Source of the DNA: Vicinamibacterales bacterium
GTDB taxonomy: Bacteria; Acidobacteriota; Vicinamibacteria; Vicinamibacterales; UBA8438
Assembly (NCBI GenBank): GCA_965197395.1
Contig: OZ240205.1
Coordinates: forward strand, 1,787,107 to 1,851,106
Length of the DNA: 64,000 bases
Direction: 5' to 3'
Of this stretch, positions 237-46,534 are shown piece by piece. Every line of letters begins with the position of its first letter. The first letter of the stretch is position 1. The translations under genes and the position numbers were made by a program. The notes under the pieces were generated by a model that made no database searches, was not told where the DNA came from, and worked only from the letters and a program-made list of their open reading frames with translations.

Positions 237-659
237 CTAGCTCACCAAGCTGACCAGATCGGATCCCGGCTCACCGTGGGTCAGGCGCTTCCGCCGAGCC
301 GCCGCGAGTTCGCGTAGGCGTGCGAAGACATCCTTGATTTCGTCCACATCCCGCCGGAGCCCGTCAACGGTGGAGGCGGTCTCTCTGACCTGCTCGACCT
401 CCTGACGAAGCGCCCTGACGTCAGCCATGATGTCTCTGGCCAATTCGACGAGTTGCTCCTGCGCGTGGAGGACGGGAAGCTGGGGTCGCTGAGCGCATTC
501 AACGATGTCGGCCTCATCCTGACCGTCGTCGTTCCCTCGTTGCTCAACGGTGCCCAGCCACGCTTCCACGTCCGCGAGGAGCGGAGAGCGGCAGCCTCCT
601 GTCTCCGCCGAGTGCGGCTGTTCAGCGTGCTCGACCTCAGCAACGACCGCGTTCGACAT
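237..659 (-). CDS. hypothetical acidic coiled-coil protein
   Basis: 140-aa ORF with heptad-like charged C-terminal half (LRQEVEQVRETASTVDGLRRDVDEIKDVFARLRELAAARRK). No recognisable family. Confidence 0.3.
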   Translation of the reverse strand: MSNAVVAEVEHAEQPHSAETGGCRSPLLADVEAWLGTVEQRGNDDGQDEADIVECAQRPQLPVLHAQEQLVELARDIMADVRALRQEVEQVRETASTVDGLRRDVDEIKDVFARLRELAAARRKRLTHGEPGSDLVSLVS

Positions 660-974
660 TCCTTGCCTCCGTCAGGTGGCTAGACGACCTCGCCGCGACA
701 CCAGGTCTCAGGCCGCGCACCGGCTCGGGAACCGGACCACCCCTGGATTGCAAGGTCACTGCCAAAGATTCGACATAGCTGCTGGACCCCGTTGGAACGT
801 GAGTTGTCATGTACGCCGGTGAGCCTGCCTCGGAAAGGCATCGCAGGTGTTGTGCTACTTCGGGACACCTGGCGCCGAATCCGTGAGACGCGGGACACAT
901 CTCTCGGCGTGGTCCATCGCTCGATGGCGTCCCCGTATAATCGGAGCTGTTCTGCGCGACTGACCGGACAGCAC

Positions 975-1133
975 ATGGCCCTGACGCCCAACGTTCAACT
1001 TGGCGTCTACGAGGTGTCGTCCCTCCTCGGTCAAGGGGCATGGGTGAGGTGTGGCCTGCCCATGACACCCCGCTCAATCGCGACGTCGCGCTGATAGTGA
1101 ATCCGGGGAATGCGGCCGGGGCATTCAGGTAGG
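975..1133 (+). pseudogene. Ser/Thr protein kinase N-terminal fragment (frameshifted, truncated)
   Basis: LGVYEVSSLLGQG in one frame continues in another frame as GMGEVWPAHDTPLNRDVALIV. This is the G-loop plus VAxK strand of a Hanks kinase. A stop follows shortly after and no catalytic loop is present. Confidence 0.4.
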
Positions 1134-1228
1134 TCAGACCAAGAACTGTGAGTCGGTCGATCCTACTACGCGAGAAAACACGCGCCGAATGCGCTGTGGC
1201 GCGACGAAACCGCAAAGCAGCGGTCTAC

Positions 1229-1257
1229 TTGACAGCGAGGATGAACGTAACTACTCT
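1229..1257 (+). promoter_or_regulatory. sigma-70-like promoter candidate upstream of the ArsR-family gene
   Basis: TTGACA (1229-1234), 17-nt spacer, TACTCT (1252-1257), 60 nt upstream of the GTG start at 1317. Lies in a locally AT-richer patch. Confidence 0.35.
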
Positions 1258-1316
1258 TTGAAAAGTATCGAATTGACTGAGACGGGGCCAACGTTGGCCA
1301 TTGCGGCAGCAGACCC

Positions 1317-1622
1317 GTGGCGCCTTTCAACACCAAGCGGCTTGCCAAGATCATGAAGGCGTTGGCCAGCGAGCATCGCCTGGCTCTCTATCTGGGTATT
1401 GCGGAGAACTCAGCATCCGGTTTCGAGGCCCCGACCTGCCGTGTCAGCCAGATCGTGAAGGCGTTCAGGCTCACCCCGCCCACCATCTGCCATCACCTGA
1501 AAGAACTCGCCAATGCCGATCTCATCGTCACGGAGAGGCAGGGGAAATACTTGGTGGCGAAGGTCAACAAGGACGCCCTCGCTGAAGTGGAAGAGGTGCT
1601 TGCGCTCGTCAAGAGCGGCTGA
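1317..1622 (+). CDS. ArsR/SmtB-family transcriptional regulator
   Basis: 101 aa. KALASEHRLALYL ... VSQIVKAFRLTPPTICHHLKELANADLIVTERQGKYLVAKV is the ArsR winged-HTH signature. Confidence 0.85.
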   Translation: MAPFNTKRLAKIMKALASEHRLALYLGIAENSASGFEAPTCRVSQIVKAFRLTPPTICHHLKELANADLIVTERQGKYLVAKVNKDALAEVEEVLALVKSG

Positions 1623-4908: not shown

Positions 4909-5125
4909 GGTTCCTCTCAGGGATCGTGCAGCTTTGGCCGGTTCCATGGCTAATAAGTCAAGCATTGTCATCGACTTACGTGGCTGGAGAACACCGTCTG
5001 TATCTGGAGAGGAACTGCAGGCTCTCGGAAAGTCCGGCCCACGGTACACGGCGGAAATCGCGAGGGGCCTGCCAGTGCCAAGGGGCTGAACAGTCAGCGA
5101 GGGTTCGGCCCAGCGGTAAAACGTC
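4909..5125 (+). mobile_element. truncated copy (first ~217 bp) of the 474-bp MITE-2 element
   Basis: Starts with the same terminus GGTTCCTCTCAGGGATCG as the full copies at 11323 and 42853 (reverse). It is collinear with them up to ...CAGCGGTAAAACGTC and then diverges. Confidence 0.7.
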
Positions 5126-5267: not shown

Positions 5268-6041
5268 ATGCCCGACCGACTTCAGCTCGCAAGGAATTGG
5301 CTCCCACGATACACGGGGATGCCCCTTGACCGGTTCGGCGATCACATCCTGCTGACTAACTTCCGCTATCACGTGGACACGTTCACAGAGACGTTCGGCT
5401 GTGAACGGTTTGGCGAAGACAAGCCGATGCAGGCGGCGACGAACGACCTGGGGCTCACGATCATCAATTTCGGGATTGGGTCCGCAAACGCGGCAACGAT
5501 CATGGACCTGCTGAGCGCCTGCCAACCCAAGGGTGTCCTGTTCCTCGGGAAGTGCGGCGGGCTCAAGAGATCCACCGAGATCGGCCATTTCATCCTGCCG
5601 ATCGCGGCCATTCGTGGTGAGGGGACGAGCGACGATTATTTCCCGCCCGAAGTGCCGGCGCTGCCCTCGTTCAAACTCCACAAGTTCGTTTCCCAGAAGG
5701 TCGCCGAGCACGGATATGACTATCGTACCGGTGTCGTGTACACAACGAATCGACGCGTCTGGGAGCACGACAACGACTTCGTAGCTCGGCTCAAAGCGAT
5801 GACCTGTATCGCCATCGACATGGAGACCGCCACGATCTTTATCGTCGGACATCGGAACGAGATCGCTCGTGGCGCACTCCTGTTGGTTTCAGACTTGCCG
5901 ACGACGCCGGAGGGGGTCACGACTGAGGAGTCGGACAAGCGGTTTATCCAGGAATGGTCTCAGATCCACCTTCAGATGGGAATCGAGGCGATGACCGAGA
6001 TCGATGAACGCGGCGAGAAGATTAAGCACTTCAAGTACTGA
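5268..6041 (+). CDS. amn: AMP nucleosidase (short form, PNP/UDP phosphorylase fold)
   Basis: 257 aa. FGIGSANAATIMDLL, FLGKCGGL, IAIDMETATIF and the C-terminal KIKHFKY are typical of AMP nucleosidase catalytic domains. Confidence 0.75.
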   Translation: MPDRLQLARNWLPRYTGMPLDRFGDHILLTNFRYHVDTFTETFGCERFGEDKPMQAATNDLGLTIINFGIGSANAATIMDLLSACQPKGVLFLGKCGGLKRSTEIGHFILPIAAIRGEGTSDDYFPPEVPALPSFKLHKFVSQKVAEHGYDYRTGVVYTTNRRVWEHDNDFVARLKAMTCIAIDMETATIFIVGHRNEIARGALLLVSDLPTTPEGVTTEESDKRFIQEWSQIHLQMGIEAMTEIDERGEKIKHFKY

Positions 6042-7054: not shown

Positions 7055-8292
<1,238 letters not shown>

Positions 8293-8456: not shown

Positions 8457-9176
8457 TTAGCGTGACCCTTGCGCTGCCGCCTGCTCTTCTGCCCGCGTTC
8501 CGCCCAGCATGACCGCCATGCTGTAGTTCCCTTCGTGACAGGCGTACTCGAAGATCGGCTCCGGGTTCAGCACCATCGGCACCGACGCGGTCCACGGGCG
8601 TGTCCACATCTCGGGATCGAGCACCGTGAACTCGTAGACCAGCGTCTCGGCGTCCACGCGGGTGAGGCGCTCGACCAGCTGCATGCTTTCGGTCGTGCCA
8701 CGCCACCGCCGCTTGGCGGCGAAGTTGCGGGTCTCGATTACGAGGGTGTCGCCCTCCCAATGCCCGCGAGAGTCCCCCGACCATTGGCGGATGTCTTGAT
8801 CAAGCCCGGGACCCGCGCCGAGCGGGACGATGCGAGCCGTATGCACCATCTCGGTCACCAGCACGACGTGGTCTGGCGTCTGGGGCGCCCTGCTCCCACA
8901 GGCGAGCATCGCGGTCCACGGCTTCTTGGTCGAGATTCGCCGCGTCCTCCTCCGTCAAGAACTCCTGGTCGCCCAGATCCTCCGGTCGTTGCATGGGCGT
9001 AATGGTGCGGAGTCCCAGACACCCTGCAGGTCCGGCTGACCCCACGACGTCCGAGGAGCGGTCTGGGCCGCACCGGGAATGGCCGACAGCGCCACGACCG
9101 CGATCAATGCACACACCGTCGCGAGACATCGATGGCTCATGTGACCCTCCTCTCGCTCTCTCAGCTCTCGGTCCAC
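8457..9176 (-). pseudogene. degraded member of the expanded secreted family (frameshifts plus internal deletion)
   Basis: N-terminus (signal peptide, TSWGQPDLQGVWD), middle (TITPMQRPEDLGDQEFLTEEDAA) and C-terminus (EMVHTARIVPL ... WEGDTLVIETRNF ... FEYACHEGNY) lie in three different frames. The DPPDGRIPP / ERC segment is missing. Confidence 0.7.
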
Positions 9177-9389: not shown

Positions 9390-9917
9390 GACAATGCGGT
9401 TCGGGATCTGCTGGACCTGGAGGTCGACGTGACCGAGCTGCTGCCGGCCGACGGCGCGAGCTACGGGTTCGACAACGTCGCCGGTGTGCTCGGTGTCTCC
9501 CCGACGCTACTCGAACGGTACTTGGGCGCGGCGCGAAAGATTAGTCGGATTGCGGTGGGCAGACCGGTGCCGTCGGCCGCCACGGAAACGTTTCGTGTGA
9601 CCAATGATCTCTCGCAAGATGATTGGGTCGCGGGCATGCCGTTCGGCACGAGGGGTGGGGCAACCTTTCGGTACAACTTTCCACAGGACGGGGAGTACGT
9701 CGTGAGGGTGTCGCTGGCGCGGGGTACCGGTGGTCAGCTCGCCACATTCGATGTTCCGCATGCTCTCGAAGTCAGTCTCGATAACGACATCGTTCTGGTC
9801 GCCGGCGGGGCTGAAGTGGATGGTCACTCGGATGCCGGCTTTACACCGCTCATGTTTGCGGCGCGGCTCGGGCATATCGACACGGTGGACGCGTTGCTGG
9901 ATGCAGGGGCAGATATT
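9390..9917 (+). pseudogene. chimeric remnant: DUF1587-like N-terminal segment joined to an ankyrin repeat, then cut by the ISL3 element
   Basis: DNAVRDLLDLEVDVTELLPADGASYGFDNVAGVLGVSPTLLERYLGAARKISRIAVG is the DUF1587/PSD-type block. It is followed by GFTPLMFAARLGHIDTVDALLDAGADI (ankyrin). The frame continues after the IS at 12212 (HQTLPDGTGPL...). Confidence 0.5.
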
Positions 9918-9986
9918 GGCTATATCCGAATTTCCCAACTAACGAAATGCGCTGATGATGCTGGTGCATAGGCATTCTGACGTCGC

Positions 9987-11264
9987 TCACAGGGTACGCA
10001 AGTGGCTGGGAATGTGCGCAGGAATATCGAGGTCACCGACGGTCAGGTAGATCATGTCGGCGAAGTCGTCCAGGTGGCGATAACCGGACGCCCGGTTCTT
10101 GACGATCTTGATAATGCGATTCAAGCCCTCGCCGACGGCATTCGTCAGCGGCCTGTCGATGAAGGCCATGATGTGCGTGAGGTGCGTCCGCAGTGTCCCG
10201 ACAAACGTGCGCAACGTCGGGATGCGGCTGCGCAACGCGGCGGTCATCCAGCGTCTGAGGAACTTCGTCGCCGAGGCCCGATAGCGGTAGTTCCAGAAGT
10301 GCTCAAACTCGTCCTTGAGCACCCAGGCGCGATGAATGCGCCGATTGGAGTTCCGCAAGCGATTGAGGAACCGGGTATGGCCCTTGGTCCGGTGTCTGGA
10401 GTGCCTGCTGAGCAGCCACCGCAGCCCCTTGATCGCCTTGCGCCCCGGCGTGTCGAGAGCCCGCCACTGTTCCTTGCGGACTTCGTCCACGGCCTGGTTT
10501 AGCGCTTTGACGAGATGGAAGCGGTCGAGGACGAGCGTGACCTCGGGACAGTGATCGGTGATCGCCCCGATATAGGCGGGGCTCATGTCGCAACTGGCCC
10601 AGGCGACCCGCGTTTTCTGCCCCGGGCTCAGCCAGTCGTTGAAGAAGCGATCGATGGTGTCGCGGCCCTTGCCCGGGCCGACCCACAGGACGCGCGCGCG
10701 GTCCAGGTCGTAGACGAGGGTGGCGAACTTGCGGCCCTTGCAGTAGGAGATCTCGTCGACGCCGAGCGTGGTCAGGCCTCGGATTTTGTGCCCGTGGCGC
10801 ACCCGCGTGATGACTCGGTGCAGCAGGTTGGACAGGGTCGAGGTCGGGAGCCGCAGGATCTCGGCCGCCGCCTGCTGCGTCATGATCTGGCACAGGGCGC
10901 AGAGGCGCCACTCCAGGCGGTAGGTGACGCGGGCATAGGCCGGCGCCCAGGGGATCTCCTCCTGCACGCGCCCATGGGTGGGGCACTGGATCTCTTTCGG
11001 GGCATACCAGAGCACGATGCGCAGGCCCATGACCGCCACATCCTCCCACCGCCGTCGCTCGCTTGTCTGGTGCACGATTCGGCCGCGCCGCCCACACGCC
11101 GGGCAGCGGCAGCCGTTCTTGTACGGCTTGACCGCCAGATGGAGCTCCGTGTCGCGATGCATGAACCGAACATGCGTGACCTTCAGACTCTTGAGACGTA
11201 GGATCGTGCGCAGCAACTTCAGGTTGCTCACGGGCTTCTCCTCCTTCCTGTCGACGGCAATCAA
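9987..11264 (-). CDS. ISL3-family transposase
   Basis: 425 aa. N-terminal zinc ribbon (CRCPACGRRG ... CPTHG), then LGVDEISYCKGRKFATLVYD, ASCDMSPAY, LDRFHLVKA and GLNRIIKIVKNRASGYR. Confidence 0.9.
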   Translation of the reverse strand: MIAVDRKEEKPVSNLKLLRTILRLKSLKVTHVRFMHRDTELHLAVKPYKNGCRCPACGRRGRIVHQTSERRRWEDVAVMGLRIVLWYAPKEIQCPTHGRVQEEIPWAPAYARVTYRLEWRLCALCQIMTQQAAAEILRLPTSTLSNLLHRVITRVRHGHKIRGLTTLGVDEISYCKGRKFATLVYDLDRARVLWVGPGKGRDTIDRFFNDWLSPGQKTRVAWASCDMSPAYIGAITDHCPEVTLVLDRFHLVKALNQAVDEVRKEQWRALDTPGRKAIKGLRWLLSRHSRHRTKGHTRFLNRLRNSNRRIHRAWVLKDEFEHFWNYRYRASATKFLRRWMTAALRSRIPTLRTFVGTLRTHLTHIMAFIDRPLTNAVGEGLNRIIKIVKNRASGYRHLDDFADMIYLTVGDLDIPAHIPSHLRTL

Positions 11265-11322
11265 CAGAGGGAATGAAGCCCGTGTTTACATGCAGCAATC
11301 AAGTCATTGCATCAGCTAAACG

Positions 11323-12171
11323 GGTTCCTCTCAGGGATCGGTGCAGCTTTGGCCGGTTCCATGGCTAATAAGTCAAGCATTGTCATCGACTTACGTGGCT
11401 GGAGAACACCGTCTGTATCTGGAGAGGAACTGCAGGCTCTCGGAAAGTCCGGCCCACGGTACACGGCGGAAATCGCGAGGGGCCTGCCAGTGCCAAGGGG
11501 CTGAACAGTCAGCGAGGGTTCGGCCCAGCGGTAAAACGTCGGCGAAAGTCCAGGCCGCGTTCCACGAGTGTTCATGGTTCGTCGCCCTGTAAATGCCAGC
11601 GCCTCAGCACCTTGAGGTGGGACCGGCTGCCGTCGAGCAGGCCCCCCACCAAAAGCGGGGCCCGCGCAGGCGGCCGTCGACTGAGCGATAGACGACTTCA
11701 CCGCTGATTCGCGGGCACGAACACATCCGCAGCCTCTTTCCACGGCGTGGCTGACCTGCTGGGGGCTGAATCGGGGTCTATCCGGGTTTCCCAACGCCAT
11801 TTTGGGGCCTTTCGGGGTTTTTCGTGGGTGATTTGATTGGAAAGGCCCTGTGGGAGCTCGTGGAAAACGCACAGCGTTTTCCAAGGCACGGTGGGCGCGT
11901 TCTGTGCGTCCACGGCGCCGTCAGCTTCCACAGGGCCCGTCCGTGCGCGACAAGATGGCTCCCAGGGAGGGGGCCCATGCGTGATGTCGAACTGGACCGC
12001 TGCGTCCTCGGACTGCAGTCGACCGGCGAACAACTATGTTCGCGTCAACACCGTCGACCTGTACACGCCGAACGCTCGATTTACCCCGGAAAGACTGGGA
12101 TATCAGGTGCTTACGCTATTTGGGAAACTCGGATATAGCCCTGAATCGTGCACACATTTGTGTGAGGAACC
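11323..12171 (+). mobile_element. MITE-2 (474 bp when the nested MITE-1 is removed), inserted in the IS 58 nt upstream of the transposase start
   Basis: Termini GGTTCCTCTCAGG / GGTTCCTCACACA (inverted). Exact 8-bp duplication GCTAAACG at 11315-11322 and 12172-12179. Confidence 0.75.
11774..12140 (+). mobile_element. MITE-1, a non-autonomous derivative carrying both ISL3 ends, nested in MITE-2
   Basis: Ends are GGGTCTATCCGGGTTTCCCAA and GGCTATATCCGAGTTTCCCAA (reverse complement). Exact 8-bp duplication CTGAATCG at 11766-11773 and 12141-12148. Confidence 0.75.
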
Positions 12172-12488
12172 GCTAAACGTCTTTGGCAAACCCGGATAGA
12201 CCCCAGATATTCACCAGACGCTTCCGGATGGTACCGGTCCGTTGCGGCGTTTTCCCGAGCTAGAGGTGGCACTGCTCGAGCTGGGCGCCACCTCACCCCT
12301 ATTGGCTGCCCATGGTAGCCCGTGTAGATCTGATAGCGATGGTCTTCAACCGTCGTGCGAACGCGGATGCTGGTGGGTCCGGTGACTTCCACCCGTAACT
12401 CGGCGCCGTTCTGCAAGACGAACGCGTCACTGGCATTCAGCAGGTTGGTGACGTGCCGACGTCCGAACAGTCGTTGTCCAATCAGCAG

Positions 12489-13097
12489 CTAAACAGTGCC
12501 GTTTCCCTCTACCTCTTTCAACAAGCGCTCAATTGACGCTCGCTCTGGCACCAGGTTCTTGCGCACATGTCGACAATTGATATGAACGATGACAACCAAC
12601 AGTGCAACGCAGGCGGCAATGTAAGCGGTTCGAAACCTTTCTAAGAAACCTTCGAACCCGACAACGACGACGGTGAGCGGTATCATTATGGGCAGGCCGT
12701 ACCACCACAGCACTCTCGTCAGTAACCCGATCTGATGGTCGACGGCGTCTCGAGATTTCTCCAGTGACCCGCGTATCGAATCGCTCTCTAGCGGTGCTGT
12801 TGCGCGGGACTTGATACGCTCGCGCACAAAGACCCCGCTGACAAGCCAGCACGCGACACCCAACGCGATCCAATCCCATCGTATGGTCCCGGGCAAATCG
12901 AAGGCGCCCTCGTAAAGGCAGCCCAGGCCAACCAGCACACCAACAGTTAACTCGGCCCAGTCGCGATGCCGCGCCTGGCGTGCAAGACTCGTATTCTGTC
13001 CTTTGACTAGCCTGTGTAGGCTCGCTTCATCGATGCTAAAGCGATGCGTGCCCTCATCCCTCTTCCACAGCATTTGGGCGAACTCTAAGTCCATCAC
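12489..13097 (-). CDS. membrane protein, possible anti-sigma partner of the upstream ECF sigma
   Basis: 202 aa with about four TM segments. A 4-nt overlap with the sigma gene stop suggests co-translation. No recognisable anti-sigma motif. Confidence 0.5.
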   Translation of the reverse strand: MMDLEFAQMLWKRDEGTHRFSIDEASLHRLVKGQNTSLARQARHRDWAELTVGVLVGLGCLYEGAFDLPGTIRWDWIALGVACWLVSGVFVRERIKSRATAPLESDSIRGSLEKSRDAVDHQIGLLTRVLWWYGLPIMIPLTVVVVGFEGFLERFRTAYIAACVALLVVIVHINCRHVRKNLVPERASIERLLKEVEGNGTV

Positions 13098-13588
13098 TCG
13101 TCCTCCAGCAGTGTCTTGAGTCGGAACTTCATGCGGTTGATCTTCACACCGACGGAACTCTTGGAGATTCCTAAGATGGTCGCCATGTCCTCATAGCTAT
13201 TGCCATCCAAGTAGAGTAAGGCCAGCGAGCGATCGACCAACTGCATGGTTCTGATCTGCGCATACAGCCAATCCAGCTGTTGGTCCCGCTCCGGATCAAA
13301 GCGCACCCAACCATCCCATGACTCTAATGGCTTGGTTCTTGGTTGCCGATCCGTGCGCCGCCGATGGCTGATGGCTGTGTTCAGTGCTACTCGGTAGATC
13401 CATGTTGATTCTGCCGAGCGCTGGTCAAACTTCTCGATAGAGCGCCACAACGCGAGAGCAATCTCTTGAAACAGATCTTCCTGAGCGTCGAGATGCGGTG
13501 CGTAAATCATAACGACGCGGTAGATGAGCGCTCTGTATTGTTTGAGCCACCGCTCAAACTGCGCGTCGTATGTATTCAAGGGCCGCAT
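13094..13588 (-). CDS. ECF-type RNA polymerase sigma factor
   Basis: Region 2 (DLFQEIALALWRSIEKFDQRSAESTWIYRVALNTAISHRRR) and region 4 HTH (SYEDMATILGISKSSVGVKINRMKFRL). Confidence 0.8.
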   Translation of the reverse strand: MRPLNTYDAQFERWLKQYRALIYRVVMIYAPHLDAQEDLFQEIALALWRSIEKFDQRSAESTWIYRVALNTAISHRRRTDRQPRTKPLESWDGWVRFDPERDQQLDWLYAQIRTMQLVDRSLALLYLDGNSYEDMATILGISKSSVGVKINRMKFRLKTLLEDE

Positions 13589-14592
13589 TCCCCATTTCGT
13601 TCTGGAACGTTAGTCGCCAGGGTGGGGGTTTTCTTACATCAATGAGCCCCCCCCTTTTGACACACCGACGGCCGCAGCCAACGTCAGTTGCACGTCGAAC
13701 GCGGACGGAGCTCACGAGGCTCGCGAGGCCGCAAGGTCGTGCGACAAAGAATTGCTGCTGGCGGACGGCTGTTCGTATGTGACGATCCGCCGCCGGGTCG
13801 ACTGCGCGATGCTGACCTGGGCGCCGCCCTTTATGCCAGATTGGTGGTTACAGAACGGAGTACAGTTCCCCCCCGGACTCTAAACCCAACCGCTACTGAA
13901 GGCGGGGGGACGTCGGGCGCTTCCTGGCCGGCTACGTACGCGGGGCGCCCCGCCGGCGTTCCGGTGGCCACCGGCTGGGCCACGGAGCGACCCGCGAGCG
14001 AAACCAGGGCGCAGCCGACCCCGAGAGCGACCATGGCCGGGGTAGAGCGACGGGCAGACATGAGTCATCGAAATATAGTCGTGCGTCCAGCAAAGGCTGG
14101 CGCGTTCAGCGGGAGACAGTCCCGCCGGAGCAAGAGCCAGGAGCTCCGTAGCCTGGATGGCAGGGAGGAGGGAAACCGAGGCTCTGAAGCCCATCGACGA
14201 CCCACCCATGGGGTGGCAGCGAGTCATCGGGCCGTAACGAATGTGAACGCAGAGGTGGCCCCGAAAGTCATGGCCCCGGAGGCCGAGCCCCCGACTATTG
14301 GGCGAAGGCAGCATCACGTGTCGCACACTGGCTGACGCGGCACGTGGCTCCGGCGGGGTGGGAGCGACGGCACGATGACAAGGACGCGTCGAGCAACTGG
14401 AGAAGCCCTCCTCGTCCTGTCGCGAAATCGGCAGAGCTAGGTAGGTCGTATAACCGGCAGCCCGGGAAGTCGACCGAAGACGAGAGGGTGGCGGAGGGGC
14501 TTGTAGTAGCACAGAAGCGGGGTAATGCCCGTGGAGCGAAGGAGCCCTGCTGTCTCGGCAGCACCTCCGGCAACATGGAAGGCAGGGGCGAG

Positions 14593-15903
14593 ATGACGAA
14601 GGCGCCCATCACGCTGCAAGACCTGAGACGGAGGATATACGTCAAGGCGAAGGCTGAACCGTCTTGGCGGTTCTGGGGCCTGTACGCCCACGTCTGCAAA
14701 ACCGACACGCTCCACGCGGCCTACTCACTGGCCAAAGCGAACAAGGGGGCCCCTGGCAGTGACGGGGTCACCTTCGCGGCCATCGAGGCGGACGGGGTGG
14801 CAGGGTTTGTTGAGCAGTTGCGGGCCGAACTGGTTACCCGCACGTATCGTCCCATGCGCAATCGACGGAAGGCGATACCGAAGGACGGCGGCAAGAAGGT
14901 CCGCGTGCTGTCGATACCGGCCATCCGCGACCGCGTGGTCCAGGGAGCCCTCAAGCTCATCCTGGAACCTATCTTCGAGGCAGATTTCCAACCGGGTTCG
15001 TTCGGCTATCGGCCCCAGCGGACGGCGCATGCAGCGGTGCAGCGAGTCGCCCAAGGCATCGTGCAATACAAGACCCGCGTCATCGACGTGGACCTTGCCG
15101 CCTACTTCGACAATGTGCGGCACCACCTGCTCTTGGCGAAGGTGGCTCGACGGGTCAACGACGCGGACGTGCTGGGCTTGGTGAAGCTGATGCTGAAGGC
15201 GTCGGGCAAGAAGGGCGTTCCCCAAGGCGGGGTGATTTCACCCTTGCTCAGCAACCTCTACCTCAACGAGGTGGACCGGATGCTCGAGCGCGCCAAGGAG
15301 GTCACGCGGAACGGGAAGTACACATACCTCGAGTATGCGCGCTTCGCCGATGATCTCGTGATCTTGGTGGATGCCTACCGCCGGCATGACTGGTTGCTCA
15401 CGGCCGTGGACCGACGCCTCCGGGAGGAATTCGCCAACCTCCAGGTCACGATCAACGAGGAGAAGAGTCAGACCATCGACTTGGCCCGTGGGGACAGCTT
15501 CGGATTCCTCGGCTTCGCGTTCCGTCGGGTTCGCAGCCGTACTGGCACGTGGCGAGCGCATTACACGCCGCGGGTGAAAGCCCGTACAGCGCTCCTGCGT
15601 AAGCTGAAGGACATCTTCCGACGCCATCGGTCCCAGCCCATCGACCGTGTGGTGACTCTCATCAACCCGGTTCTACGGGGATGGGTCACCTACTTCGCCG
15701 TCGGGCACTCGAGCCGGTGCTTCTCGTTTGTGAAAAGCTGGGTGGAGAAGAAGGTTCGGCGTCATTTGATGCGTGCCCGGAACCGCCAGGGTTTTGGGTG
15801 GCACCGGTGGAGTCGGCGGTGGGTGTATGACGTGCTCGGTCTGTTCAACGCGTACCGAGTCCGTCGTGTGGTCCCCCCGCTGACAGCGGGTGCCACTCGA
15901 TAG
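14593..15903 (+). CDS. group II intron reverse transcriptase/maturase
   Basis: MTKAPITLQDLRRRIY ... APGSDGVTF ... RKAIPKDGGKKVRVLSIPAIRDRVVQ ... ARFADDLVILV (YADD variant) ... RGWVTYF (domain X). No endonuclease domain. Start chosen at ATG 14593. Confidence 0.9.
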   Translation: MTKAPITLQDLRRRIYVKAKAEPSWRFWGLYAHVCKTDTLHAAYSLAKANKGAPGSDGVTFAAIEADGVAGFVEQLRAELVTRTYRPMRNRRKAIPKDGGKKVRVLSIPAIRDRVVQGALKLILEPIFEADFQPGSFGYRPQRTAHAAVQRVAQGIVQYKTRVIDVDLAAYFDNVRHHLLLAKVARRVNDADVLGLVKLMLKASGKKGVPQGGVISPLLSNLYLNEVDRMLERAKEVTRNGKYTYLEYARFADDLVILVDAYRRHDWLLTAVDRRLREEFANLQVTINEEKSQTIDLARGDSFGFLGFAFRRVRSRTGTWRAHYTPRVKARTALLRKLKDIFRRHRSQPIDRVVTLINPVLRGWVTYFAVGHSSRCFSFVKSWVEKKVRRHLMRARNRQGFGWHRWSRRWVYDVLGLFNAYRVRRVVPPLTAGATR

Positions 15904-15936
15904 GTCCCATAGCCCTTGACGGGAAGCCGGCAGGTA

Positions 15937-15967
15937 AGCGGAGTGCGGGAAATCCGCACGCTCCGTT
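15937..15967 (+). ncRNA. group II intron domain V
   Basis: AGCGGAGTGCGG-GAAA-TCCGCA-CG-CTCCGTT. It shows the AGC triad paired with GUU, a GNRA-type loop, and a 2-nt bulge on the 3' strand. Confidence 0.6.
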
Positions 15968-16185
15968 TGACGAGGCGGGGCCTGGAAACGGAGCCACGGA
16001 TGACCCTATGCGGGCACGAAGGGGGAAACCCCGGACACAGCCAAGGGGAGTCCTACGGGCCACCGCGCCAGGCCTCGACCCTACCAAAGGCGGTCGGGGA
16101 CGGATTTCTTCCCAACCCGCGTGACGCCACCACCCGTCGTCTGGCACTATAAGGGGTCGTTCCTCGTACTTCTGGGAGAACACGG

Positions 16186-17181
16186 ATGATCAAGAACAGC
16201 CTGGCGGTGGTGTTTGCCTTGACCCTCGTCCTGACGCTCGTCCCGCAGGCGGCGGTGGCGCAGTCTGGCGTTGCCGGGATGCCGATGCGGACGCCGGACG
16301 GCCAGCCTGACGTCTCCGGCATGTTCACCTTCCGGACGATCACGCCGTTCCAGCGTCCCGAGCAGTTCGCCGGGCGCGAAACGCTCAGTGCCGAGGAAGC
16401 CGCGGCGTTCGAGGCGTCAGAGCGTACCCGCCAGAATCGTGACCTCTTTGACCCGGAGAAAGGCTCGGGTGGCTACCGTCCCCGCGCCGACGGCGGGGTG
16501 CTGTCATACAACGAGTTCTGGTACGAGCGCGGAATCGAGCTGACGAGGGACAAGCGGACCGCCCTCGTCATCGACCCGCCGGACGGCCGGCTGCCGCCAC
16601 GCACCGACGCGGCCATCAAGGCTGCCGCGGTCCGGCGCGACTATGTTGAGGAGCACCGCTACGATTCGTACGAGAACCGCAGCTCTGGCGACCGCTGCCT
16701 CATGGGTTTCAACGCTGGCCCGCCGATGCGGTCGAGCGCCTACAACAACAACGTGATGGTGTTCCAGACACCAGGGTATGTGACGATTCTCAACGAGATG
16801 GTGCACAACGCCCGGATCATTCCGATCGACGACAACCCGGATCTCGCGTTCGATCAACGCAGCGGCGTGTCCCGGGCCCACTGGGAGGGTGAGACGCTGG
16901 TCATCGAAACCGACCAGTTCAGCGGCGGGAGTAGCGGCCTGACCTCGACGAGCATGCATCTGGTCGAGCGCCTCACTCGACTCGACCCCGACACTGTCGC
17001 GTACGAGTACACGGTCACCGACCCAACGGTCTACACCGCACCGTATACGGTGATGATGCCGTTCCGTCGAACCGACGGACCGCTCTTCGAGTACGCCTGC
17101 CACGAAGGCAACATCGGCCTGCATGGCATCCTTGCCGGCGCACGGCAGCTCGAGGCCGACGGACGGAAGCTCCGTCCCTGA
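16186..17181 (+). CDS. secreted protein of the expanded uncharacterised family (short form)
   Basis: Signal peptide, DGQPDVSGMFTF, TALVIDPPDGRLPP, DRCLMGFNAGPPM, EMVHNARIIPID, WEGETLVIETDQF, FEYACHEGNIG. Confidence 0.8.
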   Translation: MIKNSLAVVFALTLVLTLVPQAAVAQSGVAGMPMRTPDGQPDVSGMFTFRTITPFQRPEQFAGRETLSAEEAAAFEASERTRQNRDLFDPEKGSGGYRPRADGGVLSYNEFWYERGIELTRDKRTALVIDPPDGRLPPRTDAAIKAAAVRRDYVEEHRYDSYENRSSGDRCLMGFNAGPPMRSSAYNNNVMVFQTPGYVTILNEMVHNARIIPIDDNPDLAFDQRSGVSRAHWEGETLVIETDQFSGGSSGLTSTSMHLVERLTRLDPDTVAYEYTVTDPTVYTAPYTVMMPFRRTDGPLFEYACHEGNIGLHGILAGARQLEADGRKLRP

Positions 17182-17298
17182 GGCACATCGCGCGCTCACT
17201 GGCGCGTTCAGCCGCGCGGGGTAGTCGAAGGCGAGAGCAGTAGACTCGCCGAAGGTTGACCGATTGGCCCGTGCGCCAACTGAGCAACCGACACGTCA

Positions 17299-17895
17299 AT
17301 GGTGACGGAGGTCGATGTCTTCTTCAGGGATCTCGATGGCGTGTTTTACAAACTCGTCGAGCGGGCACCGCCGCACGGGGATCCGGACGCGGCGATGCAC
17401 ATCACCGCGATGCCGTATGTTGCGCTGAACGTGACAGATTTCGAACGCTCCTACGCGTTCTACCGCATGCTCGGTTACACAGAGACTGTCCGGTTGCCGG
17501 AAACAGGAACGCTCGAGGAAGCCCGGGCGTACGGCCTCGACCGGCCATTCCGGATTCGGGGCGCGGACATGGCGCTGCCGCGGGGGGACCGGCACGGCAT
17601 CCGCCTCGTGCAATGGCTCGAGCCGGACGACGACGACCCACCCTATCCGCCCCCGATCAGCCACATCGGTATCGATCGGCTGGCAGTGTCCGTACTCGAC
17701 CTCGACAGGGCCGTGGAGATGCTGGCATCTCGGGGCGAAGCGTTTCTCTCCGAGATCGCTCCCTGTTGCTCTGGCACCGGCCTGGATGAGATGGGGATCA
17801 TCAATCTCACTGATCCGGACGGCATCTTCATCGAGTTGGTCGGGCCCATTCAGCGTCGAGAACCTCCGACGCCGCCTGAGTGGTGTCGGCAGTAA
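17299..17895 (+). CDS. VOC-family (glyoxalase/bleomycin-resistance/dioxygenase fold) protein
   Basis: YVALNVTDFERSYAFYRMLGY ... HIGIDRLAVSVLDLDRAVEMLASRG ... LTDPDGIFIELV. The true start is probably an internal Met (~17392). Confidence 0.65.
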   Translation: MVTEVDVFFRDLDGVFYKLVERAPPHGDPDAAMHITAMPYVALNVTDFERSYAFYRMLGYTETVRLPETGTLEEARAYGLDRPFRIRGADMALPRGDRHGIRLVQWLEPDDDDPPYPPPISHIGIDRLAVSVLDLDRAVEMLASRGEAFLSEIAPCCSGTGLDEMGIINLTDPDGIFIELVGPIQRREPPTPPEWCRQ

Positions 17896-17985
17896 TGACG
17901 TCCGGGTAGGTCGATGCACGCCGCCGACCCATCAGCGGCACGCGGAGTCGCTCAACGCGGAGTGTCGAGGGTCGGCCGGGAGCAG

Positions 17986-18297
17986 CTACTTCGCGGCCTT
18001 TCGCTTCGCAGCCCAATACGCCTTCATCCGCTTGGCCACGGCTTTCCTGCCCGCCGCCGACATCGTGCGACGCTTCTTCTTTGGCTTGGCCGCTGCCTTC
18101 TTGTTGGCCCAATGCGCCTTCAGCTTCTTGGCCAGGGCCTTGCGCGCCGCAGCAGACATCTTTCTGCGACGCTTGCGCTTCTTGGCTGTGGTCTTCCCGC
18201 CGATGATGCTGGCGGCTCGTTGGAGGGCATCGATATCGGCCTGCAGTTGTCCGATGGCGGCTTGCTTGGAGGCGATGGCTTTGGTGAGGTCGGTCAT
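17986..18297 (-). CDS. small highly basic Lys/Ala-rich protein with duplicated motif
   Basis: 103 aa. N-terminal coiled coil, then two copies of K-R-R-x-MSAA-x-RKA-x-AK-x-x-KA-x-WA-x-K. Confidence 0.55.
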   Translation of the reverse strand: MTDLTKAIASKQAAIGQLQADIDALQRAASIIGGKTTAKKRKRRRKMSAAARKALAKKLKAHWANKKAAAKPKKKRRTMSAAGRKAVAKRMKAYWAAKRKAAK

Positions 18298-18425
18298 GAG
18301 TTGAGCCTATCGACGGACCCGACGAGGTGTCAACCGACATGGTCAGGCAAGGAACGGTCGACGGCTGTTGACAAGCCTGTCCCGAGCGCCCACGATTCGT
18401 TCCATCGCGTGAGAGGACAGAGACG

Positions 18426-19610
18426 ATGATGAACCGCCGCCAGTTCGTCTACGCCGCGGCCGCCGGTGCCGCCATGTTGGCCCGCACGCCGAGGGTATTC
18501 GGGGCAACGCACGATCTGATCGTGAAGGGCGGGCGCGTGATCGATCCGTCGCTGCGAATCAACGCGATCGGTGACGTGGCAATCGCCGCCGGCCGCATCG
18601 CGGCGGTCGAGACCGACATTGCGGACGATGCCACCGAGACGTTCGATGCGCGTGGCAGGCTCGTCGTCCCGGGGTTGCTCGACATCCACACGCACTACGC
18701 ACGGGATCGCGAAGGATCAACCATCGGTTTGGAGGGCGGCGTCACCGGATGGATCGATTCCGGATCGGATGGGGCGGACGGCATCGACGAGCTGGTGGCC
18801 AATGCGCGATCGGCACCGCAGCCGGGACGCGTGCTCATCAACATCGGTCGTGCCGGTATCTTGCCCGACGGCGACACGATGGACCTCGCGCTTGCCGACG
18901 TCGATGCGGCGAAGGGCGCGATTGCGCGCCACCGTGACGTCGTCATCGGCGTCAAGGCGCGGCTGTCGAGAAATGTCGCTGCCGACGATGTCGAGGTGCT
19001 GCGTCGCGCACAGGAAGTCGCCTCGTCCTTCGACCTGCCAGTGATGATCCACATGGGACAAACGGTCTCGCCGCTGCCCAGGCTGCTCGATCTTCTCAAG
19101 CGCGGCGATATCGTCACCCACATGTTCGCGCCGCCGCCCAATAGCATCATCGACGACACGGGCCACATCCTGCCGGCAGTGCTGGCCGCCCGGCGACGCG
19201 GCGTGTGGTTCGATGTCGCCAACGGACGGACCGGCCATCTGCGGTGGGACACGTTCGACGGCATCATGCAGGCGGGTTTTTGGCCCGATACGATTTCCAC
19301 GGATGGGAGCACGACGAGCCGGTCGGCGGAGAGCGTCATCGATTTCCCCAACGTCATGTCCAAGTTCCTGAACTTCGGCATGACGCTCGACCAGGTGGTG
19401 GCGCGCGCGACCGTCAATGCCTCGCGCGTGTTCCCGCTGTTCGCCGACCGCGGCACGCTCAACGTGGGCGCGCCGGCCGACGTTGCCGTGCTCGAGCTGC
19501 GGGACGGCACCTTCGAGTTCGTCGATAACTACGGGAACACGCGCACCGGCCGTCAGAGGCTCTTCCCGAGCGGCACCGTGCTCGGCGGCGCGGTCGTTGC
19601 GCGCGTCTAG
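18426..19610 (+). CDS. amidohydrolase-family metallohydrolase with Tat-type signal
   Basis: MMNRRQFVYAAAAGAAMLA (twin-arginine-like), VVPGLLDIHTHY (HxH metal site), dihydroorotase/deacetylase-like length. Confidence 0.8.
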   Translation: MMNRRQFVYAAAAGAAMLARTPRVFGATHDLIVKGGRVIDPSLRINAIGDVAIAAGRIAAVETDIADDATETFDARGRLVVPGLLDIHTHYARDREGSTIGLEGGVTGWIDSGSDGADGIDELVANARSAPQPGRVLINIGRAGILPDGDTMDLALADVDAAKGAIARHRDVVIGVKARLSRNVAADDVEVLRRAQEVASSFDLPVMIHMGQTVSPLPRLLDLLKRGDIVTHMFAPPPNSIIDDTGHILPAVLAARRRGVWFDVANGRTGHLRWDTFDGIMQAGFWPDTISTDGSTTSRSAESVIDFPNVMSKFLNFGMTLDQVVARATVNASRVFPLFADRGTLNVGAPADVAVLELRDGTFEFVDNYGNTRTGRQRLFPSGTVLGGAVVARV

Positions 19611-19681
19611 CGGCAGTTGTAGGACGCCGGTGGTATAAGTAACAGCGGACCAGGGCGCCACGGGGCGGTTCTGGCCGGGCT

Positions 19682-20029
19682 GTGCGGCTTTTCTTTTCTG
19701 AAGGCGAGGTTGATGACACGCTGGAGCGTTGCGACCACCTCCGCGTCGGCGCCGCGCACTACCCACCGACGCACTCCCGGGAGTTCCCGGAGCTGGGCGT
19801 CACGCTCAGCGTCTACGAGGGCGTCGTCGATGTCGCCGTCCCGGTCACGCCAAACGCCGAGTTGTTCAACTGGACCAACCCCGAAAAGCCGGATCAACTC
19901 AAGGTGCCGGTGTCGGTGCTGTTCCAGGCGTGCAGCGAGACAATCTGCTACGTGCCGCGGACGGAGGCGCTGTCGCTGACGGTGCCGATCGAGCCGCTGC
20001 TCACCTCGGGAGCGCCGAGAGCCAGGTAG
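19682..20029 (+). CDS. DsbD_N-like domain protein (possibly N-terminally truncated)
   Basis: VSVLFQACSETICYVPRTEALSLTVPI resembles the C-terminal Cys pair of DsbD N-terminal-like domains. No signal peptide is visible and the start is doubtful. Confidence 0.35.
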   Translation: MRLFFSEGEVDDTLERCDHLRVGAAHYPPTHSREFPELGVTLSVYEGVVDVAVPVTPNAELFNWTNPEKPDQLKVPVSVLFQACSETICYVPRTEALSLTVPIEPLLTSGAPRAR

Positions 20030-20075
20030 CAATCACCGGAACCGGCCACGGACCGGAGGGGGCCGTGGCGGTCTG

Positions 20076-21506
20076 TTGTCGTCACCGCAGTCGACTTCCA
20101 GCAAAGCCGTGAGAAACGAGCGTACGGTCTGGTGGCTGCGGTCGATGGCGGTCGTCGCCGTTCTCGCATCCAGCCTCCCCGACGCGCGGGCGGACGACCT
20201 CGATCAGCCAGATGGGCACGAGCCGCTCGACCAGCAGAACGAAATCGACGAAGAGCCCTTTGAGCAAGAGTACCCCCTCGTCGATTGGGGTACGCTGATC
20301 GACTTCCGGTTCGCGGCGACGGACGACGCCGTCAGCGTTCTCGACGGCGGGCTCGGCAAGACACGGTACGGCGCAGGCGCCGGGTCCGATCCGGCCGTGC
20401 CGCGCGGTGCGGATCTGTTCCGCCTGTCCCAACTGTCGTTCTGGATGGACGCGCACGCGAGTGAGACGCTGGGGCTCTTCGCACACGCGAACGTCGATGC
20501 CGAGCCGGACAAGAAGCAGCACCGCGGGCGCGTCGATCTCATCGAGGGCTTCGTCTTTTACCGCCCTCGGCTCACCGAGCGGTTTCACCTCGACGTGCGA
20601 GGCGGGGTCCTCATCCCGCCGGTCTCGCTCGAGCACCCCGGCGACGCCTGGACCACCATCTATACGATTACGCCCTCCGCGGTGAATAGCTGGGTGGGTG
20701 AAGAGGTGCGGGTCACCGGGGGTGAGCTCAACCTGCTTTGGACCGGTCTATCGCACGAGCTCGCCGTGACGGGCGCCGGTTTCGGCGGGAACGATCCCAC
20801 CGGGAGCCTGCTGGCGTTTCGCGGGTGGTCGCTTCAGGATCGGGTGAGCGGGCTTTCGGATCGGCTGCCCCTGGCACCGATTCCCTCTATCGGGCCGGGC
20901 GGCCCGTTCGCGCGCACGCAGCCGCTCTGGGTGAGCCCCTTCCGCGAGATCGATGGGCGGCTCGGCTATTACGGCGCCGCGAAGTGGGAGACCTTCGACC
21001 GGCTCATCGTGAGCGCGATGCACTTCGATAACCGATCCGACCAGGTCCAATTCGACGGCGATCAGTATGCCTGGAACACCGTCTTCGACGACGTCGGGCT
21101 GTGGTTCGCGATCCCCGGCGGTCTCGAGTTCGCCACGCAATACCTCACGGGACGGAGTCGCATGGGACGAACCCCAGGAGGTGACGATGCGGTCGCCATC
21201 GACTTCGAGGCCGCGTACGGACTGGCGAGCTATCTGCGGGGACGCCATCAGCTGAGCGTCCGATACGACACGTTCGACATTCGGGACCGAGACGTGGCGT
21301 TCGGCGCCCTCGATGACAATAATGAACGTGGCGACGCCTGGACGGTGTCGTATTGGCTCAGAACGGGGGAGCGGCATCGGCTCGCCGTCGAGTGGATGCG
21401 TGTGGATTCTGAGCGAGCAGCACGCGTGAGCCTCGGGTTGCCCCCGCAGGCCGTGGAGGATCTGTTGCAAGTGAGCTTTCGCCTCAGCCTCGGCTCTATC
21501 CTCTAA
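20076..21506 (+). CDS. putative outer-membrane beta-barrel protein
   Basis: Signal peptide (MAVVAVLASSLPDARA), then alternating hydrophobic/aromatic beta-strand pattern to the C-terminus. No named family recognised. Confidence 0.5.
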   Translation: MSSPQSTSSKAVRNERTVWWLRSMAVVAVLASSLPDARADDLDQPDGHEPLDQQNEIDEEPFEQEYPLVDWGTLIDFRFAATDDAVSVLDGGLGKTRYGAGAGSDPAVPRGADLFRLSQLSFWMDAHASETLGLFAHANVDAEPDKKQHRGRVDLIEGFVFYRPRLTERFHLDVRGGVLIPPVSLEHPGDAWTTIYTITPSAVNSWVGEEVRVTGGELNLLWTGLSHELAVTGAGFGGNDPTGSLLAFRGWSLQDRVSGLSDRLPLAPIPSIGPGGPFARTQPLWVSPFREIDGRLGYYGAAKWETFDRLIVSAMHFDNRSDQVQFDGDQYAWNTVFDDVGLWFAIPGGLEFATQYLTGRSRMGRTPGGDDAVAIDFEAAYGLASYLRGRHQLSVRYDTFDIRDRDVAFGALDDNNERGDAWTVSYWLRTGERHRLAVEWMRVDSERAARVSLGLPPQAVEDLLQVSFRLSLGSIL

Positions 21507-21516
21507 GAGGATCCGA

Positions 21517-22209
21517 GTGACAGCCTTGCCCCGCATCCCGCTTCCCATCGTTTCTCTCCTCGTCTTCGGCGCCGCTACCATCCTGGGGGCCGAGGGCGGA
21601 GCTGTCACCGGTACCGTGGAGATCCTGGACACGGGCGGTGTGAAACGGACGGTCGTGCGCGAGGTCTTCGTCTATCTCGACGGGAGCGCGGTGGCGGCGC
21701 CCACCGCGTCGCAGCCCCAGCGGTCGCGAGAGCTGAGCAGTCAGGACAAGACCTTCGTACCTCATGTACAAGTCGTCCTCGTCGGGGAGGAAGTCACCTT
21801 TCCCAATGTCGATGACATCATGCACAACGTCTTTTCCATCACGCGGGGGAACCGCTTCGATCTGGGCCTGTATAAGTCGGGCGCCGGGAAGACCCACGTT
21901 TTCGAAACGCCGGGGCTCGTCAGGGTCTACTGCAACATCCACCCGCAAATGAGCGCCTTCGTGCATGTCCGCGACAACCCGTACTTCGCGTGGGCCGAGC
22001 CCGACGGGCGCTTTCGTATCGATGACGTGCCGCCGGGCGACTACACCATCACCGTCTGGAGTGAGCAGGGTGGCACCGAGCAACCGATCTCGGTCGGGGC
22101 GCAGGGTCTCAGCGGAGTGCAGCTCGCCGTCGACGTGAGCCGCTACGAACGCAAACCCCACCTCAACAAGTTCGGGAAGCCCTACAAGAGGAAGCGTGGC
22201 CGGTACTAG
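21517..22209 (+). CDS. secreted cupredoxin-like (type-1 copper ligand set) protein with C-terminal CarboxypepD_reg-like domain
   Basis: Signal peptide, VTFPNVDDIMHNVFS (His ligand), VYCNIHPQM (Cys-x2-His-x2-Met), then DGRFRIDDVPPGDYTITVW. Confidence 0.7.
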   Translation: MTALPRIPLPIVSLLVFGAATILGAEGGAVTGTVEILDTGGVKRTVVREVFVYLDGSAVAAPTASQPQRSRELSSQDKTFVPHVQVVLVGEEVTFPNVDDIMHNVFSITRGNRFDLGLYKSGAGKTHVFETPGLVRVYCNIHPQMSAFVHVRDNPYFAWAEPDGRFRIDDVPPGDYTITVWSEQGGTEQPISVGAQGLSGVQLAVDVSRYERKPHLNKFGKPYKRKRGRY

Positions 22210-46518: not shown

Positions 46519-46534
46519 GTGAAAGCCTCTTCTT

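Follow-up and report, generated by a model that had tools for sequence, protein, structure and literature searches.

Architecture of the nested insertions

Three insertions of ISL3 type lie one within another at positions 9910-12211 of the window, the 64-kb stretch of DNA analyzed here. An insertion sequence (IS) interrupts ankyrin-repeat coding sequence, a second element (MITE-2) interrupts the IS, and a third (MITE-1) interrupts MITE-2. Each is enclosed by an exact 8-bp direct repeat: CAGATATT (9910-9917 and 12204-12211) flanks the IS at 9918..12203 (2,286 bp), GCTAAACG (11315-11322 and 12172-12179) flanks the second element at 11323..12171, and CTGAATCG (11766-11773 and 12141-12148) flanks the third at 11774..12140 (367 bp). 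At any one level, two predetermined positions would share an exact 8-mer by chance with a probability of ~1.5e-5. All three sets of boundaries were also fixed without the repeats, by an empty site for each level. An earlier note on this DNA had proposed a three-level nest with an exact 8-bp target duplication at each level; all three pairs match exactly, and the empty sites bear the nest out at every level.

The outermost target is a remnant of an ankyrin-repeat gene. Its left part (9795..9917, + strand) was delimited by comparison with two metagenome contigs, L202 and L203, in which the same ankyrin sequence is unbroken and contains a single CAGATATT. Homology to these contigs begins exactly at 9795, and at 9794/9795 the relic is joined in frame to a fragment of a DUF1587/PSD3 gene (about 9340-9794), which is cut short at both ends and whose DUF1587 homologues cease aligning near this junction. 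The ORF at 9429..9917 matches both Pfam Ank (E=8e-7) and PSD3 (E=6.5e-12). The right part (12204..12301, + strand), which includes the right copy of the duplication (12204-12211), is missing 666 bp, in frame, at about 12244 by comparison with L202 and L203, and its homology to them stops at about 12301. The flank alignments to the two contigs overlap by exactly 8 bp, and once the IS is taken out, the closed-up window sequence is identical to L203 across the junction core GGGGCAGATATTCACCAGACGCTTCCGGATGG. Removal of the IS rejoins ...DAGADI in frame with HQTLPDGTGPL..., just as the earlier note had read it. The note had also placed the IS in an ankyrin gene. The insertion site itself does lie within ANK-repeat coding sequence; the gene, however, has been reduced to about 221 bp (9795-9917 and 12204-12301) fused to the DUF1587 fragment.

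The ISL3 insertion sequence and its transposase

The composite IS (9918..12203, - strand) is 2,286 bp as found; subtracting the 849-bp insert and one copy of the duplication leaves 1,429 bp. The restored IS aligns over 1..1429 with seven relatives of 1,428-1,433 bp (L001-L007; 77-89% nucleotide identity), with which it is colinear. Its right terminal inverted repeat (IRR), GGCTATATCCGAATTTCCCAAC... (9918..9942, + strand), matches the IRR of the relatives and that of MITE-1. The terminal 24 bp of the left repeat (IRL), GGGTCTATCCGGGTTTGCCAAAGA (12180..12203, - strand), align with the IRL of the relatives and are cut off from the remaining IS by the 849-bp insert. The two terminal repeats (GGGTCTATCCGGGTTTGCCAAA and GGCTATATCCGAATTTCCCAAC) match at 17 of their first 22 bases, and both ends are conserved in the relatives.

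The IS carries one ORF, a 414-amino acid transposase gene (9987..11231, - strand) that starts with GTG after GGAGGAG. The protein is an ISL3 transposase, with matches to DDE_Tnp_ISL3 (PF01610, E=4.8e-63), HTH_Tnp_ISL3 (E=9.9e-8), and the NCBIfam equivalog NF033550 (281 bits against a cutoff of 180). It retains 246 of the 248 residues that are invariant among the relatives, with the same start and stop, and the gene is apparently intact as judged from its sequence. The earlier note had assigned an ATG start 58 nt from the insert. No ATG occurs there, and 58 nt is instead the distance to the first in-frame TTG (11264); homologues and the GGAGGAG ribosome-binding site point to the GTG at 11231, 91 nt from the insert.

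ISL3 elements, as described in ISfinder, are about 1.2-2.3 kb long with a single transposase ORF. The restored IS has this size and organization, a DDE transposase matching the family model, terminal inverted repeats, and an 8-bp duplication; exact 8-bp duplications also occur at two of its relatives (L002 and L007). The nearest of these come from a Vicinamibacterales metagenome-assembled genome (MAG; L001 and L002, 89% nucleotide and 91-92% amino acid identity), and others from a Binatia MAG, Gammaproteobacteria MAGs, and tubeworm endosymbionts. Like them, the resident IS is about 1.4 kb long and encodes a single DDE transposase with zinc ribbon, HTH, and DDE_Tnp_ISL3 domains, has imperfect ~22-bp terminal inverted repeats starting with GG and an 8-bp duplication, and shares the GTG start and ribosome-binding site. 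Unlike them, it is interrupted 32 bp from the IRL tip by the 849-bp insert. At 89% nucleotide identity to its best relative, it would probably rank as a new IS or variant under ISfinder's usual identity conventions.

MITE-2 and its ISL3 origin

The level-2 insert (11323..12171) is 849 bp, or 474 bp without the inner element. It entered the IS 32 bp inside the transposase-proximal end, at a point just past the terminal inverted repeat (~22 bp) and 91 nt ahead of the GTG. The empty site at this level is provided by the seven related ISs, which come from different taxa; none of the seven carries the insert.

Besides the nested copy, the window contains one other full copy of MITE-2 (42380..42853) and a truncated third (left 218 bp; 4909..5125, + strand; 99.5% identical). 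The left part of the nested copy (11323..11773, 451 bp, + strand), which begins with the left terminal repeat GGTTCCTCTCAGGGATCGGTGCA, is 100% identical to 42855..42403. Its right 23 bp together with the right copy of CTGAATCG (12141..12171, + strand) are 100% identical to 42410..42380. Four intact relatives of 473-474 bp, 84-91% identical, were found in metagenomes, and two of these (L148 and L166) have exact 8-bp duplications.

MITE-2 is an ISL3 derivative. Its right terminal repeat encodes VHTFV-stop, a relic of a transposase C-terminus whose counterpart in the IRRs of L170 and L105, both full-length ISL3 elements, reads VHRFL-stop, and 65 bp at its right end align at 73% identity with the 3' end of the L170 transposase gene. 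The terminal-repeat pattern of MITE-2, GGTTCCTCWCA...GTGCA, occurs in inverted pairs 1,335-1,346 bp apart around ISL3 transposase genes (L083, L105, L109, L152, L170, L176, and L178, with an 8-bp duplication at L105). MITE-2 thus shares its ends and transposase C-terminus relic with ~1,340-bp metagenomic ISL3 elements. It is short, lacks a transposase, has the terminal repeats of an autonomous IS, and is flanked by duplications of family length (GCTAAACG and CGGGGTTT in the window, and those at L148 and L166). No cognate full-length IS is present in the 64-kb window, and MITE-2 probably depends on a transposase of its own subgroup, none being encoded there. An apparent likeness to RNase P RNA in the interior of MITE-2 ('GAAAGTCC') was dropped after a permissive Rfam scan of intact MITE copies gave nothing.

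MITE-1 and the reciprocal nest

MITE-1 (11774..12140, 367 bp, + strand) lies in the opposite orientation to its host IS, with GGGTCTATCCGGGTTTCCCAAC as its IRL-type end and GGCTATATCCGAGTTTCCCAAA as its IRR-type end. Its empty site is the intact MITE-2 at 42380..42853, to which the two halves of the nested MITE-2 match at 100% with an overlap of exactly 8 bp. The ends of MITE-1 are 87% identical to those of the resident IS and 93-96% to those of L001, and retain the distinction between IRL and IRR seen in this IS clade. The interior contains a relic of an ISL3 transposase start, MRDVELDRCVLGLQ, running from 11977 for roughly 28 codons, and 11913-12015 is 76% identical to L202 sequence that runs from upstream of an ISL3 transposase gene into the gene. 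MITE-1 is therefore also an ISL3 derivative. It is short and without a transposase, has IS-clade ends, and is flanked by an 8-bp duplication at both of its loci in the window (CTGAATCG and AGCAAAGT); the two copies are about 90% identical apart from a 41-bp indel. A blastn search against 80 related genome loci found no full-length MITE-1 parent and matched the terminal repeats only.

At the second MITE-1 locus, the nesting is reversed. There, MITE-1 (326 bp when restored, flanked by AGCAAAGT) occupies 42333..43140 (+ strand) and is itself interrupted by the intact MITE-2 (42380..42853, - strand), which is flanked by CGGGGTTT. This MITE-1 copy breaks a gene whose intact paralogue lies at 38766..39647. 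The only Rfam hits in the whole window at gathering thresholds were a group II intron and an ALIL pseudoknot, both outside the nest.

Exact-protein look-ups were made with the transposase (two start choices), the protein P0001, and six junction-spanning ORFs; none was on record, and no further copies of the nest were found.

History of the nest

Three insertions make up this arrangement. The 1,429-bp ISL3 IS with its intact 414-amino acid DDE transposase gene inserted into the ankyrin-repeat coding sequence, duplicating CAGATATT; the 474-bp MITE-2, from a different ISL3 subgroup, entered the IS, duplicating GCTAAACG; and the 367-bp MITE-1, both ends of which match the clade of the resident IS, entered MITE-2, duplicating CTGAATCG.

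Several observations bear on how recent these events may be. The 100% identity between its copies indicates that MITE-2 probably moved very recently. The insertion of MITE-1 into the nested MITE-2 probably postdates the split of the two identical MITE-2 copies, and the cognate ISL3 transposase would therefore have been active recently. The resident intact transposase is the obvious candidate for moving MITE-1, given a match of 26 of 30 bases at each end. Together, the reciprocal nesting and the identical MITE-2 copies point to recent ISL3-type transposition.

The order of events cannot be read from the nesting alone, because an outer element can transpose with a passenger already inside it. 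A composite could accordingly have been made elsewhere and moved as a unit, either the 849-bp MITE-2 with MITE-1 or the 2,286-bp IS with both. Each outer element retains both terminal repeats and its own exact duplication, which makes the composites structurally able to move; the transposase is intact, and the window offers no relative dating of outer and inner insertions. Against this, no second copy of either composite occurs in the window or in the loci compared, the only other full MITE-2 in the window is without MITE-1, and all seven related ISs are without MITE-2. We consider this history unlikely on balance, and it would alter only the history of the structure, not its nature. Because both terminal repeats of the IS are intact, transposition of the whole 2,286-bp composite may still be possible.

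The MITE-2 insertion and transposase expression

The earlier note had suggested that the level-2 insertion uncouples the transposase from its native promoter, a suggestion that found no support. Promoter scans covered the nest and an intact relative; in neither was a sigma-70-like site recognized upstream of or facing the transposase gene, and the scans neither support nor refute the suggestion. The insertion leaves a 5'-UTR block conserved among the relatives (TGATGCAATGACTTGATT...) joined to the gene, since this block is on the transposase side.

It is very improbable that MITE-2 changes transposase expression through some functional module of its own (a promoter or structured RNA, for example). 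The element is large for a MITE (474 bp), and five copies are conserved over their full length (mean column identity 91%), with a near-invariant GC-rich hairpin region at about columns 300-380. The copies share a recent common origin, which explains this conservation. Rfam gave no match to MITE-2 even at E<=5, and RNAalifold on the five copies returned a covariation term of +3.96, which is a penalty, with compensatory changes in 5 of 143 pairs, one of these in the terminal repeats; no promoter-like site faces the transposase gene.

Discussion

Almost no weight can be given to a misjoining of repeats from different places in the genome: the region is repeat-rich and assemblers do break here, since L201, another contig that matches the window at 100% over 11,371 bp, stops at 12218, 7 bp from the IS boundary, but misjoins fall inside shared repeats and would not give three complete elements with exact 8-bp duplications of unique host sequence, removal of each element yields a sequence independently known from elsewhere, and the window is part of a 1.9-Mb contig. 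We are highly confident that three ISL3-family transposable elements are genuinely nested at this locus, in a GC-rich genome (66%) that most likely belongs to a member of the Vicinamibacterales (Acidobacteriota). Real and well resolved as it is, the structure represents ordinary mobile-DNA biology.

Bacterial MITEs are described as arising from ISs by internal deletion, as for Chunjie in Geobacter (in the reference list of PMC10969869). Like such IS-derived MITEs, MITE-1 and MITE-2 are short and noncoding, have IS-type terminal repeats and duplications of the parental length, and lie in or beside genes, with two copies of MITE-1 and three of MITE-2 (one truncated) in the window. They differ in that both belong to the ISL3 family, and with 474 bp MITE-2 falls toward the upper end of the size range. 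Their interiors are mostly not recognizable as parent sequence, save for the short transposase-gene relics. The two MITE surveys consulted, PMC10969869 and PMC11602168, mention neither ISL3 nor nesting. A literature search on ISL3-derived or nested bacterial MITEs found nothing specific.

Cases of one IS within another occur in IS-rich bacterial genomes. Nested insertions have been amply described among plant MITEs and LTR retrotransposons (e.g., PMC6911290). As in other nested transposable elements, each element here keeps its own duplication, and removal of the inner one restores the outer one. The present case differs in having three levels drawn from one IS family in a bacterium, and in having the same two MITEs nested inversely 30 kb away.

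Roughly six ISL3-type insertions are visible in the window, about half of them within another ISL3-type element. The nest also creates new inverted pairs of ends: the MITE-1 IRL (11774) and the IS IRL (12203) enclose 430 bp with a foreign interior, and the IS IRR (9918) and the MITE-1 IRR (12140) enclose 2,223 bp, with the transposase gene among them. Both pairs could be used by the same transposase, and new MITEs might be born in this way. It is a speculative and rather improbable reading that the two nests are more than insertions tolerated in junk DNA, that ISL3-type elements prefer each other as targets and that nests are a birthplace of MITEs; if true, such births would account for the interiors of MITE-1 and MITE-2, most of which show no relationship to a parent IS.

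For annotation, ORFs that cross the junctions are insertion artefacts rather than genes, among them the 180-amino acid "PSD3 + Ank" protein P0001 and a 439-amino acid protein at 41253..42572. The identical MITE-2 copies and the reciprocal nesting mark the 5-16 kb stretch of the window as a sink for mobile DNA. A new biological question would be raised only if mutual targeting or MITE birth in nests holds; what the locus adds is a cleanly bounded ISL3 IS and two ISL3-derived MITE families, with exact ends, duplications, and empty sites, in an Acidobacteriota-type genome.

Architecture of the nested insertion

The level 1 element is the ISL3-family insertion sequence (IS) at 9918..12203 (2,286 bp), which interrupts an ankyrin-repeat coding sequence and is flanked by CAGATATT at 9910-9917 and 12204-12211. 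Within it, the level 2 element at 11323..12171 (849 bp), formed by the 474-bp non-autonomous MITE-2 and its own insert, is flanked by GCTAAACG at 11315-11322 and 12172-12179. The level 3 element, the 367-bp non-autonomous MITE-1, lies inside MITE-2 at 11774..12140 and is flanked by CTGAATCG at 11766-11773 and 12141-12148. All three have imperfect inverted repeats at their ends. The three exact 8-bp direct-repeat pairs are present at precisely the positions claimed in the earlier note (the chance of an exact 8-mer match at one fixed position pair is ~1.5e-5), and every boundary of the three-level nest was also confirmed by repeat-independent evidence, in the form of empty sites or intact relatives. 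The nest is real and fully resolved.

Nesting shows topology and not the order of events. Either composite, of 849 bp or of 2,286 bp, could have transposed as a whole, but neither turned up a second time in the window or the compared loci. Mis-assembly is very unlikely, since whole elements bordered by exact duplications of unique host DNA do not arise from wrong joins, and excision of each element restores independently known sequence. A separate 11.5-kb contig (L201, ENA ERZ25072076 ctg163143_2x_l) corresponds to window 23588..12218, is 100% identical over 11.4 kb, and stops 7 bp short of the IS boundary. The contig may end there because assembly broke off at the repeat, or it may represent a strain variant of low coverage whose IS site differs.

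Target of the level 1 insertion

A protein search with the ankyrin part alone of the disrupted ORF identified three ankyrin proteins that run uninterrupted across the insertion point (...DAGADIHQT...). At the nucleotide level, window 9795-9917 matches L202 1962-2084 (96.7%) and L203 752-874, and window 12204-12244 matches L202 2077-2119 and L203 867-903. In both loci the flank alignments overlap by exactly 8 bp, corresponding to a single CAGATATT, and the window minus the IS and one repeat matches L203 exactly across the junction core, GGGGCAGATATTCACCAGACGCTTCCGGATGG. L202 and L203 are true empty sites of the level 1 insertion.

These empty sites place the insertion in ankyrin sequence, as had been claimed, but what was taken for an ankyrin gene is here only a relic. 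Three rearrangement breakpoints surround the nest: an in-frame DUF1587-ankyrin fusion at 9794/9795, where ankyrin homology begins abruptly at 9795 and the in-frame upstream sequence is a DUF1587/PSD3 gene fragment truncated at both ends; an in-frame deletion at ~12244 of 666 bp found in L202 and L203; and the end of ankyrin homology at ~12301. The protein on record, P0001 (180 aa, "PSD3 + Ank"), is a chimeric fusion ORF running into the IS. In L202, a 5'-truncated ISL3 element adjoins the equivalent of window 12301, which hints that the rearrangement was IS-mediated.

The resident IS and its transposase

The minus-strand ORF at 9987..11264 matches DDE_Tnp_ISL3 (E=4.8e-63), HTH_Tnp_ISL3, and the ISL3 zinc ribbon, and scores 281 bits against the NCBIfam ISL3 equivalog (cutoff 180). 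Translation starts at a GTG at 11231, preceded by GGAGGAG; the resulting VSNLKLL is shared by L001-L006, the closest relatives with full-length matches, and the transposase of the more distant L008 begins MNNAKLL. There is no ATG 58 nt from the insert, as had been proposed; what lies at that distance is a TTG, in frame and upstream of the GTG. The transposase has no frameshift, retains 246 of the 248 positions invariant among seven relatives, and, judged by its sequence, is probably functional.

Removal of 11323..12171 and one GCTAAACG restores an IS of 1,429 bp. Seven relatives, 1,428-1,433 bp long, align with it across positions 1..1429, and all of them lack the 849-bp insert in this alignment; two are flanked by exact 8-bp duplications. 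Identity is 89% to two copies in a Vicinamibacterales MAG and 77-82% to copies in a Binatia MAG, Gammaproteobacteria MAGs, and tubeworm endosymbionts. The resident IS has all the sequence-level features of the ISL3 family.

The MITE-2 insertion point lies 32 bp in from the tip of the IRL, shortly after the end of the ~22-bp terminal repeat, leaving both IS ends intact. The proposal that this insertion uncoupled the transposase from its native promoter finds no support, because the part of the 5'-UTR that relatives conserve, TGATGCAATGACTTGATT...AAACACGGGCTTCATT, sits on the transposase-gene side of the insert, and no sigma-70-like promoter for the transposase was detectable in the window nest or an intact relative. 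The sole promoter-like match in the region, TTGGCA-17-GATATT (12183..12211, + strand), is a consensus match only; it is made up of IRL and target duplication and is directed out of the IS.

Origin of MITE-1 and MITE-2

MITE-2 also exists uninterrupted at 42380..42853. This 474-bp copy matches both parts of the split element (11323-11773 and 12141-12171) at 100%, with CTGAATCG as an overlap of exactly 8 bp between the two alignments. Four more intact copies, 473-474 bp long, come from metagenome contigs (L148, 91%; L159; L194; L166), those of L148 and L166 with exact flanking 8-bp duplications. A third copy in the window is truncated (4909..5125; left 218 bp, 99.5% identical); its breakpoint, 5125/5126, lies a short distance upstream of the PNP_UDP_1 phosphorylase gene at 5268..6041.

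In metagenomes, the MITE-2 terminal-repeat pattern, GGTTCCTCWCA...AT..GTGCA, occurs as inverted pairs 1,335-1,346 bp apart enclosing ISL3 transposase ORFs of 409-442 aa, with an 8-bp duplication in L105. The right repeat of these ~1.34-kb elements encodes the transposase C-terminus VHRFL*, the MITE-2 equivalent being VHTFV*, and the group's left-versus-right repeat differences are kept in MITE-2. The final 65 bp of MITE-2 have 73% identity to the transposase gene 3' end in L170. MITE-1 carries both ISL3 ends, as noted earlier, one IRL-type and one IRR-type, both of the resident IS clade (26/30 bases shared with the resident IS; 93-96% with L001). Its interior (11913-12015) has 76% identity to L202 sequence running into an ISL3 transposase gene that bears a frameshift, including the first codons (MRDVELDRCVLGLQ versus VRDVELYRHVLGLD). 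From these terminal-repeat and transposase-relic matches, MITE-1 and MITE-2 are internal-deletion derivatives of ISL3 elements of two different subgroups, and both have the structure that defines MITEs. Covariation indicative of structured RNA was absent among five MITE-2 copies, and neither element matched an Rfam family.

Neighboring mobile DNA and a dispersed gene family

An ALIL frameshifting pseudoknot (7342..7458; Rfam RF01497, 108 bits) adjoins an rve/HTH_21 integrase-core ORF (7384..8292), together constituting an IS3-family element ~1.6 kb left of the nest. Group II intron domains D1-D4 (14107..14242; RF02003, 114 bits) are followed by an RVT_1/GIIM reverse-transcriptase ORF (~14575..15903), which was called as a gene in L201. 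The intron and the other elements together make 5-16 kb a mobile-DNA cluster. A gene family with a conserved C-terminal 'CHEGNY' motif and no Pfam match has diverged paralogues (63-83% nucleotide identity) at 8470..9152, 16670..17148, 35522..35982, and 45502..47566, the last including tandem copies (45502-46522 and 46535-47558) with 83% identity to each other.

Reciprocal nesting and recent movement

A second MITE-1 copy (42333..43140), flanked by AGCAAAGT, holds an intact MITE-2 flanked by CGGGGTTT, so that the two elements are nested in both orders within ~30 kb. This copy disrupts the C-terminal part of a gene starting at 41253, which has an intact paralogue, placed at 38766..39647 or, as the uninterrupted counterpart of the nest, at 38417..39610; the protein on record, P0125 (439 aa), runs into the MITEs.

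The nesting of insertions as such is well known. Two papers on MITEs (PMC10969869, PMC11602168) make no mention of ISL3-derived or nested bacterial MITEs, a silence that reflects sparse description and not a new mechanism. Mutual targeting among ISL3-type elements, or the birth of MITEs from nests through alternative end pairing, is improbable.

The 100% identity of the MITE-2 copies points to very recent movement of MITE-2. Since MITE-1 is present in just one of two identical MITE-2 copies, its insertion at level 3 would be later still. Such a recent insertion implies that a cognate transposase was recently active, for which the intact transposase of the resident IS is the simplest candidate.
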